Positions 42,771 through 44,962 of a stretch of 64,000 nt of DNA are shown here, piece after piece (position 1 is the stretch's first letter; each line of letters begins with the position of its first letter). The translations under genes and the position numbers were made by a program. Source of the DNA: a phage; the sequence record PZ809289.1; one strand, given 5' to 3'. The notes beneath the pieces were generated by a model that saw only the letters and a program-made list of their open reading frames with translations, did not search any database and had not been told where the DNA came from.

Positions 42771-42790
42771 GGAGCTTCGGCTCCTTTTTT
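42771..42790 (+). terminator. Rho-independent terminator (GGAGC-UUCG-GCUCC-U6)
   Basis: Immediately after gene 41 stop. Confidence 0.8.
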
Positions 42791-42800
42791 GTTTTTAAGG

Positions 42801-42829
42801 GTTTACATCTCCTGTAGGTGTGATACTAT
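42801..42829 (+). promoter_or_regulatory. Early promoter with stem-loop (PeSL-like)
   Basis: GTTTAC 42801-42806, TACTAT 42824-42829, GACCTATCAAC box. Confidence 0.6.
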
Positions 42830-42853
42830 AGACCTATCAACTTGGAGAACAAA

Positions 42854-43171
42854 ATGAAAACCATCGACTGTAAAGCAGAATATAAAGTGTATTATCACGG
42901 AAGTTGTAGTGTTGCTAATATCGGTAATATGCTTTGTCCTCCTGAGGAGACAGGAGTTCTGTCTGAAACTGGTCGTAAGAAAAACCTAAATCGTGTGTTC
43001 TTTACTGAAGATATTGGTTTGGCTAAGATTTATGCTGGACGTGCAGCTCGTTCAGTGGGAGGAGAACCCCGTCTTTATCGTGTAATTGCTCCGGTAGATG
43101 TGGTTTGTTTAAATGATACTAAAGGCGCTACGGTTTATCATGCTGAATGGGCCTTCTGTGAGGAAATCTAA
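42854..43171 (+). CDS. Hypothetical protein (105 aa)
   Basis: RBS GGAG; track start is TTG 42842. Confidence 0.5.
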   Translation: MKTIDCKAEYKVYYHGSCSVANIGNMLCPPEETGVLSETGRKKNLNRVFFTEDIGLAKIYAGRAARSVGGEPRLYRVIAPVDVVCLNDTKGATVYHAEWAFCEEI

Positions 43172-43366
43172 ATGTCCAAATTGACTACGGTAAAATTTGT
43201 ATGCTGTTTTAATAATGATGATACCACTACCAAAGAAGCTTCAGTACCTGAAAATGATATTGTGTGGGTGGCTACTCAATTCGCTGAAGTCAATAACATT
43301 CTAGTCAAGGCCTATGTTGATGGCGTAGAAGTTTATGAACATGATGCACGTATTAAGGAAATCTAA
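43172..43366 (+). CDS. Hypothetical protein (64 aa), tandem paralog 1
   Basis: Shares ...QFAEVNNILVKAYVDG...E.D.R with the next ORF. Confidence 0.5.
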   Translation: MSKLTTVKFVCCFNNDDTTTKEASVPENDIVWVATQFAEVNNILVKAYVDGVEVYEHDARIKEI

Positions 43367-43570
43367 ATGCCTAAATTAGAGAAAGTAGTGTTTATTGGTT
43401 GGTTTGAAAATGGTAATATGTTTACCAAAGAAACCGTTCTAGATGTTAGTGACCAAAATATGATTGAATGGGTTACAGTGCAGTATGCAGAAGTGAATAA
43501 TGCGCTGGTGAAAGCCTTTGTTGATGACAATAAAGTTTTTGAGTGTGATTATCGTTCTAACGAAAAATAA
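43367..43570 (+). CDS. Hypothetical protein (67 aa), tandem paralog 2
   Basis: ...QYAEVNNALVKAFVDD...ECDYR; same architecture as 43172 ORF. Confidence 0.5.
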   Translation: MPKLEKVVFIGWFENGNMFTKETVLDVSDQNMIEWVTVQYAEVNNALVKAFVDDNKVFECDYRSNEK

Positions 43571-43572
43571 CA

Positions 43573-43601
43573 GTTTACATCAAAGGGGTAATGTAGTATA
43601 T
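43573..43601 (+). promoter_or_regulatory. Early promoter variant with hairpin (PeSL-like)
   Basis: GTTTAC 43573-43578; 8-bp inverted repeat GGGGTAAT/ATTACCCC across the -10; CCTATCAAC box. Confidence 0.5.
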
Positions 43602-43630
43602 TACCCCTATCAACTACCGAGGAGAACATT

Positions 43631-43924
43631 ATGAAAAAGTTATTAATCGCAGCAATCCTTACAGTAGCATCATGTGGCACAGCTCCAGTTACGGCTGGAT
43701 TGGATAAAGACCTTTGTGAATGGTCTATGACTGCAGACCAAGAATCGGTTGAACATCAGATTTATGCCGATATCATGAACATCACTAAACGCGACCGCCC
43801 TGATATGGCTAAAGAAGTGTCAGACCAATTAGCTTCAGGTGGTGTTATGCAATATAACCGGAATTTGTATTGTGATGCCAATTTCGATAACAAAAATATC
43901 GTTAAAGAGGTGACAGGTGAATAA
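43631..43924 (+). CDS. Predicted lipoprotein (97 aa)
   Basis: Signal sequence MKKLLIAAILTVASCG with lipobox; RBS GAGGAG. Confidence 0.55.
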   Translation: MKKLLIAAILTVASCGTAPVTAGLDKDLCEWSMTADQESVEHQIYADIMNITKRDRPDMAKEVSDQLASGGVMQYNRNLYCDANFDNKNIVKEVTGE

Positions 43925-44357
43925 GATTAACAGAAATTTAGTTATCAAAAAACTTCGTTGTAAAAATCCAAATGCACAAGCATACAGGATGTTTTGGAGC
44001 GACGACCACCAATACCTGGGTTATTTTCTTGTTGATAGCGATGATCGAATTACAATGGCTCATAAACTTCTTAACAGAGAATTAAACCATTGGCAAGAAC
44101 TTATCGCGGTGAGGTCTAAATTATTTTCGTGCAATACAATGCACCAATTGGTTTATTTTTTCGCTGAAGGTATTCCTGACAAGGTTGAGTTTGATGGATT
44201 CGAATTTAAAGACATCCTCCCAGACAACGAATTGAACGACCGCGTTAATATGGACATCCCTAGCAAGTATATCAAAAACAGTCTGTTGAAAATTCTGGAA
44301 GCTCCGGTTTATTCAATAGATGACCAGATTTTTAATGCCTTTATGAATCGAGGTTAA
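43917..44357 (+). CDS. Hypothetical protein (146 aa, GTG start; first ATG at 43989)
   Basis: RBS AAAGAGG before GTG. Confidence 0.45.
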   Translation: MNKINRNLVIKKLRCKNPNAQAYRMFWSDDHQYLGYFLVDSDDRITMAHKLLNRELNHWQELIAVRSKLFSCNTMHQLVYFFAEGIPDKVEFDGFEFKDILPDNELNDRVNMDIPSKYIKNSLLKILEAPVYSIDDQIFNAFMNRG

Positions 44358-44358
44358 T

Positions 44359-44580
44359 ATGTTTGTCTTAACTCAATTCTCTAAAGCGGTGTATAGTTAC
44401 TCTTGTCAGTGGGAAGTCTTTATCGATTCTCCTTCACCTAAGTATGGTGTTTTTGGACGAGTAACTACTCAAGCTTATGTCGCACGGCCGACTAAGCGCC
44501 AGCTTCGTAAACTTAAAAAGGCCCATCGCCAACTGATTGAGAGAAGGGAACAATATGAGTGCAATGTGTACGGGCTCTAA
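44359..44580 (+). CDS. Hypothetical basic protein (73 aa)
   Basis: RBS GAGG. Confidence 0.5.
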   Translation: MFVLTQFSKAVYSYSCQWEVFIDSPSPKYGVFGRVTTQAYVARPTKRQLRKLKKAHRQLIERREQYECNVYGL

Positions 44581-44746
44581 GATTTCTGTATTCGAATTAT
44601 TCGAAGAGTATGAAATCGTATCAAAGGACCAAGAAGCTATCCATATTATTGCCGGTGATGGTGTGACTTGGATTATTCCACTTTACCACGAAGATACGTA
44701 CGAAGTCACTGATGCAAATGGTGATAAAGCTATTTTCGTAATATAA
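44555..44746 (+). CDS. Hypothetical protein (63 aa)
   Basis: RBS AAGGGAA before ATG 44555; track start 44537. Confidence 0.4.
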   Translation: MSAMCTGSKISVFELFEEYEIVSKDQEAIHIIAGDGVTWIIPLYHEDTYEVTDANGDKAIFVI

Positions 44747-44749
44747 ATA
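44742..44749 (+). promoter_or_regulatory. T4-type late promoter box TATAAATA
   Basis: Exact TATAAATA 14 nt upstream of SD AGGAGC of ORF 44763. Confidence 0.45.
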
Positions 44750-44762
44750 AGGCCAGGAGCCT

Positions 44763-44924
44763 ATGAAATCTTTTAAAGAAGTTATGAACGAAGATATGGT
44801 CGCAGGCGATGCAGGTGGAAACCCATCTAATATTGCCTCCGGAACTACCTCAGGCGCAGTCGTCAACAAAGGGCCTGAACAAATCCCATCTAAAAAGCGT
44901 AAAGAAAAATCCGAAAACGAATGA
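44763..44924 (+). CDS. Hypothetical small Gly/Ser-rich protein (53 aa)
   Basis: Strong RBS AGGAGC; absent from ORF track, which shows a minus-strand shadow ORF here. Confidence 0.45.
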   Translation: MKSFKEVMNEDMVAGDAGGNPSNIASGTTSGAVVNKGPEQIPSKKRKEKSENE

Positions 44925-44962
44925 TATAATGGCTCTATTAATTTAGAGCCCAAGGAAAAATA

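Follow-up and report, generated by a model that had tools for sequence, protein, structure and literature searches.

The replicative helicase gene 41 and the primase gene 61 of the phage in sequence record PZ809289.1 are separated by a 2.2-kb block of small genes, which raises the question of how such a block came to lie between two essential genes and how its content changes. The block occupies positions 42,771 to 44,962 of the 64,000-nucleotide stretch that we analyzed, referred to here as the window. A sequence-only reading of the window had taken it for an accessory insertion of nine small open reading frames (ORFs) between genes that are neighbors in T4, organized by modular shuffling at promoter stem-loop cassettes (PeSLs). 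Alternatively, the block could be an old cluster in which single genes come and go, at such cassettes or at borders of another kind.

The region from 42600 to 45100 matches 131 phage records, all of them T-even relatives, and Escherichia phage KIT01 (genus Dhakavirus) matches it best, in a single full-length alignment at 96% nucleotide identity. The primase gp61 is 100% identical in amino acid sequence to that of IME08, a JS98-like phage. Given the KIT01 match and the primase identity, the source is a JS98-like T-even phage of the genus Dhakavirus. The limits given for the interval were correct (42770 is the last position of gene 41 and 44963 the first of gene 61), although we count eight conserved ORFs between them rather than nine: orf34, dmdA, dmdB, sp, orf30, orf29, orf28, and 61.1, all on the plus strand (Table 1).

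The interval between genes 41 and 61 in relatives

The premise that genes 41 and 61 adjoin in T4 (NC_000866) proved false, as the T4 annotation places five genes (dmd, 61.4, sp, 61.2, and 61.1) and 1.65 kb between them. Four of these five families recur in the window (Dmd, Spackle, the DUF7279 family of 61.4, and 61.1), and the order of dmd, sp, and 61.1 is shared by the two phages, all on one strand. The fifth, AdfA (61.2), was not found as such in the block, where the match between orf30 and AdfA is limited to the last 14 to 15 residues. TTTAC-type promoters occur in T4 as well, one immediately after gene 41 (41/dmd), with a stem flanking its -10 element, and one immediately before sp (61.4/sp). 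Given that T4 carries promoters at the same two junctions, the two promoter cassettes of the block, P1 before orf34 and P2 before sp, sit at ancestral positions.

Between 4 and 10 small ORFs also separate genes 41 and 61 in VR20 and VR7 (Gaprivervirus), LF82-4 (Mosigvirus), Q7622 (Kanagawavirus), Klebsiella phage SmallBear, RB51 (Tequatrovirus), and G2494 (Krischvirus). A KVP40-like vibriophage and an Acinetobacter phage likewise have nothing but small ORFs in the 4 kb that precede the primase gene, and their annotation places no helicase there. The flanking genes themselves are just 65 to 76% identical in nucleotide sequence between genera and 65 to 68% identical between the window and T4 (67.5% for gene 41). 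We rejected a foreign origin of the block on grounds of composition: its GC content is 0.35 to 0.41, the same as in the flanks, and neither GC content nor skew breaks at the borders. Since T4 and other relatives carry small genes here, without a compositional break, we consider it very probable that the block represents, in Dhakavirus, the early accessory cluster that T-even phages have between 41 and 61, an ancestral hyperplastic region and not an insertion.

Several observations would nevertheless suit a module inserted between formerly adjacent 41 and 61 genes through PeSL recombination. A terminator and a promoter cassette mark the left edge of the block, the PeSL-like promoters are real and repeated, and one relative, ABTNLsp5, has an ORF inside P1 between two promoter copies. 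In addition, the piece comprising P1 and orf34 (42791-43172) is approximately 84% identical in nucleotide sequence to Mosigvirus by megablast, whereas the adjacent end of gene 41 has no megablast match; by blastn, this piece stands at 76.6% identity and gene 41 at 71%. Yet every other Tevenvirinae genome examined carries small genes here, as T4 does, the order of dmd, sp, and 61.1 is the same, and the T4 promoters lie at the same junctions. Moreover, the right edge of the block has no cassette, just a hairpin and the ribosome-binding site (RBS) of gene 61, and the composition runs through without a break. We therefore regard insertion through PeSL recombination as highly improbable.

The locus is the well-studied T-even dmd-spackle region, its arrangement is already annotated in GenBank (KIT01), and it is not a discovery. 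The interval concentrates counter-defense and exclusion genes, namely Dmd, Spackle, and the AdfA slot. What remains of main interest is that gene-end junctions, and not promoter cassettes, mark most of the cassette borders in this counter-defense locus.

Promoter cassettes and the borders of indels

A generic promoter and terminator scan was not discriminating (21 promoter-like sites versus 16.6 expected, which does not exceed the background of shuffled sequence, and 8 terminator-like sites versus 3.8), and we used the family-specific box CCTATCAAC in place of its promoter calls. This box, which follows the -10 element by 3 nt, occurs in 10 copies in the window, all on the plus strand, versus 0.52 expected. 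Approximately 20 intergenic TTTAC-type promoters lie on the plus strand of the window, and the 10 that carry the box include P1 and P2. The two promoters that had been called PeSL-like are where they were reported, within a repeated family of that kind. P1 is identical at 38 to 40 of 46 nt to cassettes at 1401, 4398, 9042, and 13520.

By its published definition, a PeSL consists of a stop codon, -35 and -10 boxes, a stem-loop, a Shine-Dalgarno sequence (SD), and an ATG (PMC2839356). The stem-loop is frequently of the form GGGG...CCCC and may be found upstream of the promoter or, as is often the case, in the -35/-10 spacer or overlapping the -10; the variant in T4 and PST has the consensus TTTACW-N17-TAYWAT (PMC4122927). 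Both P1 and P2 are intergenic, have sigma-70-like -35 and -10 elements spaced by 16 to 17 nt, and lead into an SD and an ATG. The stem-loop is provided in P2 by an 11-bp stem over the -10 (43584-43608; GGGGTAAT...ATTACCCC; GGGGUAAUGUA/UAUAUUACCCC; GGGG...CCCC), with a fold of -14.5 kcal/mol and a z-score of -1.9. The internal hairpin of P1 is weak (z -1.1), and its stem-loop is instead the terminator hairpin that lies upstream of it, after gene 41. In several canonical cassettes of the window, the spacer ATCTCCTGTAG pairs with the downstream SD region CTACAGGAGAT at -19 to -21 kcal/mol, with z-scores of -4.4 and -5.7 for the two that we tested; P1 retains just a weak form of this pairing. Complementarity between the -35/-10 spacer and the downstream SD was seen in the cassettes at 1401-1460, 4398-4458, 13520-13578, 20087-20148, and 53691-53750. 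In such cassettes, read-through transcripts would be predicted to hide the RBS, whereas transcripts from the cassette's own promoter would not.

We then aligned the 41-61 interval of 12 Dhakavirus genomes and typed each gene. The genomes differ in gene content. While orf34, sp, orf30, orf28, and 61.1 are constant, six cassettes vary as single-gene or two-gene indels. Just 3 of the 12 mapped indel borders fall in promoter cassettes, and the other 9 coincide with gene-end or start-codon junctions. The three cassette borders are both sides of the ABTNLsp5 ORF and the right side of a two-gene segment, c46 plus 61.4.

The ABTNLsp5 indel is a 522-bp segment with a 125-aa ORF, found in that phage only. 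It lies inside P1, between the -35 and -10 elements, with a copy of GTTTACWTCTCC..TAG on either side, as in a PeSL-type event; in a Mosigvirus, a 35%-identical ORF fills the same slot. The second segment, of 444 bp, consists of a 46-aa Cys-rich ORF (c46) and 61.4; the window, KIT01, and E33 lack it. The segment is bordered on the left by the last dmdB codons and on the right by a point in the sp promoter. Two alleles of this promoter occur, that of the window and that of JS98, the latter identical to P1 in its -10/+1 part; the window allele (P2) is linked to the absence of c46 and 61.4. In LQ5 and Bp7, the sp promoter is a hybrid that switches in CCTATCAACTA, between the -10 and the SD, and published crossovers in PeSL mini-circles have been mapped to the same part of the cassette (PMC2839356).

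A first MAFFT alignment had split the c46-61.4 gap into 167 and 277 bp, with a 15-nt match at the 61.4 start and the dmdB tail as a fusion. We rejected this version, as the reading frames differ and the D-Y-R tail matches the D-C-R of T4 Dmd; a more accurate alignment gives one 444-bp block. The 46-aa ORF is zinc-ribbon-like (MEEFECVVCGCSVCEDQ...CLDCD...), follows dmd in many relatives (2276-2416 in locus L003, with the same slot filled in L004, L005, L007, L008, L014, and L015), and is 76 to 80% identical across genera, although it is missing from the window.

The proposal of modular PeSL shuffling therefore holds only in part. Gene content is plastic, one indel lies inside P1, and the sp promoter has hybrid forms, but 9 of the 12 borders lie outside cassettes. 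As judged from these alignments, cassette shuffling at this locus is real, with PeSLs as a minority route.

Gene ends as candidate exchange sites

The clearest gene-end border is that of dmdA. This gene is a 195-bp unit that is absent from JS98, E33, dhaeg, AnYang, and UGJNEcP3, and its borders are an exact 14-nt repeat, AGGAAATCTAAATG, whose two copies are spaced by 195 bp, the length of the indel. A direct pattern search found exactly two copies of this repeat in the window, where 0.04 would be expected; the inverted and direct repeat finder had not listed it. The neighboring dmdB, which is absent from Bp7 and LQ5, has the same kind of junction, and dmdB of the JS98 type also ends in ...GCCCGCATTGAGGAAATCTAAATG.

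The tandem paralogs noted at 43172 and 43367 are two Dmd antitoxin genes, whose products are 48% identical. Both exceed the PF17587 cutoff of 27 (48.3 bits for dmdA and 78.5 bits for dmdB) and match the solved Dmd structures 5hy3_B and 5i8j_A (dmdA to 5hy3_B at 1.7e-10; dmdB to 5i8j_A at 3.6e-23 and to 5hy3_B at 4e-18). The dmdA product is 43% identical to T4 Dmd, a direct inhibitor of the HEPN RNase toxins RnlA and LsoA (PMC8266594). By analogy with T4, we infer that the two proteins would bind and block host toxins of the RnlA/LsoA type and that two divergent copies probably extend neutralization to a wider range of toxin variants. Two copies occur in just 5 of 741 Dmd-bearing phage records (KIT01, fDHCT2, 04086, ABTNLsp5, and DCP80), and our literature search returned no relevant description of tandem dmd genes in Dhakavirus. 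Dhakaviruses show three dmd states: dmdA only (Bp7, LQ5, WG01, IME08, and others), dmdB only (JS98, E33, MX01, and others), and the A-B tandem. Among them, dmdA is more variable in amino acid sequence than dmdB (75 to 97% versus 89 to 100% identity), with changes mostly at residues 4 to 19. This variability fits a faster evolution of one antitoxin copy.

The pair could have arisen by an old tandem duplication in place, followed by divergence and repeated loss, or by unequal recombination of allelic types. Duplication in place would account for the adjacency and shared orientation of the copies and for the same 14-nt junction between them, and the dmdA genes of tandem genomes form their own group (83 to 97% identical among themselves versus 75 to 87% to the single-copy dmdA of Bp7 and LQ5). 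However, with just 48% protein identity and no cross-match as DNA between the copies, any duplication must be old. The tandem state is also rare among dmd-bearing records, both single states are common in close relatives, and unequal crossover at the junction fits at least as well. Duplication in place therefore seems to us the rather unlikely course of events.

A second border of this type is a 50-nt element at the end of orf30, which codes for SIDDQIFNAFMNRG (the last 14 codons) and continues into GAGGTTAATATG. It is 90% identical in nucleotide sequence to its T4 counterpart, although the surrounding gene bodies do not align, and it is found in 711 phage records at 909 places with 84 to 100% identity. 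The encoded 14-residue C-terminus, S(I/V)DDQIFNAFMNRG, is identical or nearly so in orf30 (146 aa), T4 gp61.2/AdfA (208 aa), and a 116-aa ORF of UGJNEcP3; the last of these has a sub-threshold Pfam match to AdfA over its C-terminal part only. T4, JS98, LF82-4, and the window have a single copy of the element. Where it is doubled, it flanks exactly one ORF, with a spacing of 358 bp in RB51, 352 bp in UGJNEcP3, 355 bp in VR20, and 361 bp in VR7. The UGJNEcP3 case is one of the six Dhakavirus indels, a 352-bp ORF after orf30 flanked by two copies of the approximately 50-nt element. In the remaining indel, orf29 is deleted from ATG to ATG (196 bp) in Bp7 and dhaeg.

Given these borders, we tentatively put forward, as a possibility somewhat short of even, that T-even phages have a second class of exchange sites beside PeSLs, formed by conserved 3' gene ends that run into the coupling signal of the following gene. 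Examples would be the 14- to 27-nt ...(A/I)(R)I(E/K)EI-stop-ATG junction around dmd and the 50-nt ...SIDDQIFNAFMNRG-stop-ATG element in 711 phages. Anti-defense genes would be swapped, stacked, or lost at such sites, the shared tail may be a functional handle, and dmdA-dmdB would be a stacked repertoire against toxins of the RnlA/LsoA type.

Several points weigh against gene ends as sites of recombination. The conserved tails show synonymous changes and are thus held by selection on the peptide, and any role as recombination sites could be incidental. Indels at gene boundaries are also expected from selection against polar or toxic fusions, whatever the mechanism of recombination. Finally, the borders of the orf29 indel share just 6 nt (AATATG). 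Taken to its end, this line of thought holds that the EEI-stop and DDQIFNAFMNRG-stop gene ends are kept only for a peptide or coupling function and that borders coincide with them since viable indels respect gene boundaries. T4 and the window indeed agree in 14 of 14 residues of the tail, with synonymous differences in the DNA, and since the differences between copies are largely synonymous, the peptide is under selection. The last 30 residues are the most conserved in the orf30 family, and the orf29 indel has hardly any repeat at its borders.

On the other hand, conservation for function alone would not explain why repeat spacing equals the exact length of the indel, both for dmdA (195 bp) and for the ORF033c/Y116 cassette (352 to 361 bp) in three genera. 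Less than 50 bp of homology suffices for recombination in T4 (PMC2839356), and the same tail sits on unrelated protein bodies, most simply through exchange at the tail. For these reasons, we doubt that function alone keeps these gene ends and judge that account unlikely, while keeping the exchange-site proposal tentative. If the junctions are true exchange sites, they would explain how anti-defense genes re-assort without disturbing the essential helicase and primase genes, and they would offer simple handles to predict or engineer such swaps in therapeutic phages.

Gene products, transcription signals, and known systems

Table 1. Features of the 41-61 interval and its flanks; positions refer to the window, except in the last row, where they refer to the loci named
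Feature	Position	Strand	Details
Gene 41, replicative helicase (DnaB-like), left flank	41331..42770	+	phrog_19 2.4e-124; Pfam DnaB_C
Predicted intrinsic terminator, 7-bp stem, UUCG loop	42769..42797	+	terminator scan; hairpin AAGGAGC-TTCG-GCTCCTT 42769-42786, then T6GT5
Early promoter cassette P1	42802..42853	+	-35 TTTACA 42802, -10 TACTAT 42824 (16-nt spacing)
P1, downstream parts	42833-42841; 42844	+	box CCTATCAAC; SD GGAGAA
orf34, 105 aa, predicted ADP-ribosyltransferase-fold protein	42854..43171	+	phrog_2110
Junction repeat, copy 1	43161..43174	+	AGGAAATCTAAATG; coding tail EEI + SD + stop + ATG; left dmdA border
dmdA, 64 aa, divergent Dmd antitoxin paralog	43172..43366	+	Pfam Dmd (PF17587) 1.3e-12
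Junction repeat, copy 2	43356..43369	+	AGGAAATCTAAATG
dmdB, 67 aa, Dmd antitoxin, closer T4 orthologue	43367..43570	+	Pfam Dmd (PF17587) 4.7e-22
Early promoter cassette P2	43574..43630	+	-35 TTTACA 43574, -10 TATATT 43597 (17-nt spacing)
P2, downstream parts	43606-43614	+	box CCTATCAAC; SD GAGGAG
sp, Spackle, 97 aa	43631..43924	+	Pfam T4_Spackle 1.8e-41; 68% identical to T4 Sp
orf30, 146 aa, in 61.2/AdfA slot	43917..44357	+	GTG start overlaps sp stop; phrog_8539
50-nt tail/junction element	44312..44361	+	SIDDQIFNAFMNRG, then GAGGTTAATATG
orf29, 73 aa, DUF7279 (T4 61.4 family)	44359..44580	+	Pfam DUF7279 4.5e-19
orf28, 63 aa, RB69 orf033c family	44555..44746	+	ATG 44555; phrog_3249 5.1e-33
Candidate T4-type late promoter box	44742..44749	+	TATAAATA, exact match; overlaps orf28 stop codon, upstream of 61.1
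61.1, 53 aa, orthologue of T4 gp61.1	44763..44924	+	phrog_1823; 33/41 residues identical to T4, E 4e-24
Hairpin, 7-bp stem	44931..44950	+	GGCTCTA-TTAATT-TAGAGCC; preceded by TATAATGG (44923-44962 region); no T-run
Gene 61, DNA primase, right flank	44963..45991	+	phrog_47 9.8e-96
Doubled 50-nt element in relatives	L021 1842-1891 + 2200-2249; L008 2262 + 2614; L009 2992 + 3347; L016 2788 + 3149		

For the first gene, orf34, the ATG at 42854 agrees with the SD and with 105-aa homologues. The product is a predicted minimal NAD-using ADP-ribosyltransferase-fold protein of the H-Y-E branch (Arr, Tpt1, or diphtheria-toxin-like). Of the candidate catalytic residues, H15 (in YHGS) and Y60 are invariant and E103 is nearly so, and, by our reading, the VFFT strand carries F in place of the Y of Arr. 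The match to Pfam Arr-ms stays below the cutoff of 25 (15 bits, E 0.029), and a profile search gave no match among PDB sequences.

The ORF at 43631, which had been read as a lipoprotein, is Spackle by its Pfam match and its identity to T4 Sp. A lipoprotein processed by signal peptidase II would have a lipobox, [LVI][ASTVI][GAS]C, where its signal peptide ends. The lipobox-like pattern here is VASC (LASC in T4 Sp), and the site equivalent to the T4 cleavage site is VTA|G. N-terminal sequencing of T4 Sp placed cleavage after residue 22 and identified a soluble periplasmic protein (PMC7650644); Spackle is a periplasmic inhibitor of the gp5 tail lysozyme (PMC7650644, PMC7677548). By analogy, the protein encoded here would be exported to the periplasm and inhibit the gp5 lysozyme of superinfecting phages.

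The next gene, orf30, occupies the slot of AdfA, an anti-DarT factor present in 13 of 17 Tevenvirinae tested (PMC11257639). Its match to Pfam AdfA (E 0.0071, 16 bits) is below the cutoff of 27 and covers the last 14 to 15 residues, and upstream of this shared tail there is no similarity to AdfA. The last 30 residues are the best-conserved part of the family, and AlphaFold predicts the N-terminal domain with confidence and a helical tail with low confidence; a structure search with orf30 returned no informative structural neighbor. In phage 04086 (4207-5064 of its locus), the orf30 homologue has two internal insertions (189 and 234 bp) and reaches 285 aa. Downstream, orf29 belongs to the same family as T4 61.4 (DUF7279, 2.3e-20 for the T4 protein) but follows sp, whereas T4 61.4 lies between dmd and sp. 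We found orf28 in 12 of 12 Dhakavirus genomes, in VR7 and VR20, and in LF82-4.

The terminator reported after gene 41 is present as a hairpin followed by a T-run (fold -10.5 kcal/mol, z -2.2). It is invariant in 12 of 12 Dhakavirus genomes, and T4 has no hairpin at this position. An Rfam scan of 41000-47000 (E<=1) gave just two sub-threshold chance matches, and we saw no other T-run-bearing site of the terminator type ahead of gene 61.

The late box TATAAATA also lies where it had been reported. Four copies occur in the window (688, 8240, 44742, and 46804), all on the plus strand, versus 6.2 expected on both strands. The copy before 61.1 is kept in Dhakavirus, Gaprivervirus, and Kanagawavirus, in differing sequence contexts, and is absent from T4; it probably adds late transcription of 61.1 and 61. 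A point against this role is that the box lies just 13 nt from the 61.1 ATG, with the predicted late start approximately 6 nt after the box, so that the leader would be very short. The copy at 46804 lies just upstream of a 77-aa ORF at 46843, where VR20 has soc.

The hairpin at 44931-44950 (-11.2 kcal/mol, z -3.2) immediately precedes the gene 61 RBS. Compensatory changes preserve its stem in VR20, Q7622, SmallBear, and LF82-4, whereas T4 lacks it; a T-run follows the stem in Q7622. This hairpin could be a processing, stability, or translational element.

Together, these features suggest how the block may work. The terminator after gene 41 would stop upstream transcription at least partly and insulate the block; P1 would drive orf34-dmdA-dmdB, which are joined stop-to-start by TAAATG; and P2 would add transcription of sp-orf30-orf29-orf28-61.1-61. 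If established knowledge of T4 applies, the products would act early, Dmd against host toxins and Spackle against the lysozyme of superinfecting phages. As the comparison of relatives shows, cassettes of one or two genes are gained and lost at short repeats, mostly at gene-end junctions (AGGAAATCTAAATG and ...DDQIFNAFMNRG-stop) and in a minority of cases at PeSL-like cassettes. Presumably, the repeats recombine, homologously or unequally, when the phage replicates or infects a cell together with another phage.

Among the closest known systems is KIT01 (AP019521), where KIT01_030-036 have the same gene order, including two annotated dmd genes, although its dmdA is just 91% identical in protein and its orf29 is unannotated. 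The T4 interval shares the flanking genes and their orientation, the orthologous dmd, sp, and 61.1 in order, a gene of the 61.4 family, early promoters before the first gene and before sp, and the same 50-nt end on the gene after sp. Unlike T4, the window has the terminator after gene 41, orf34 as first gene, two dmd genes, orf29 and orf28, TATAAATA before 61.1, and the hairpin before 61; it lacks a 61.4 between dmd and sp and has orf30 in place of AdfA.

In the modular theory of phage evolution, linker or boundary sequences at module borders coincide with exchange points. Such module linkers, and the N-terminal leader of the T4 internal-protein locus (Repoila 1994, cited through PMC4122927), resemble the present case in that short conserved border sequences sit on otherwise unrelated genes, whereas in this interval the conservation falls on 3' coding tails joined directly to the translational coupling signal of the gene that follows. 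The PeSLs of RB49/phi1 and of T4/PST (Arbiol 2010, PMC2839356; Comeau 2014, PMC4122927) share with the cassettes of the window a stop codon, TTTACW-N16/17-TAnnnT, a stem-loop, an SD, and an ATG. They likewise repeat through the early region, with some indels and a -10/SD crossover mapping to them. In contrast to the published PeSLs, the family in the window has the extra conserved box CCTATCAAC after the -10 and canonical stems that pair the spacer with the SD, and in the 41-61 interval it accounts for just 3 of 12 indel borders.

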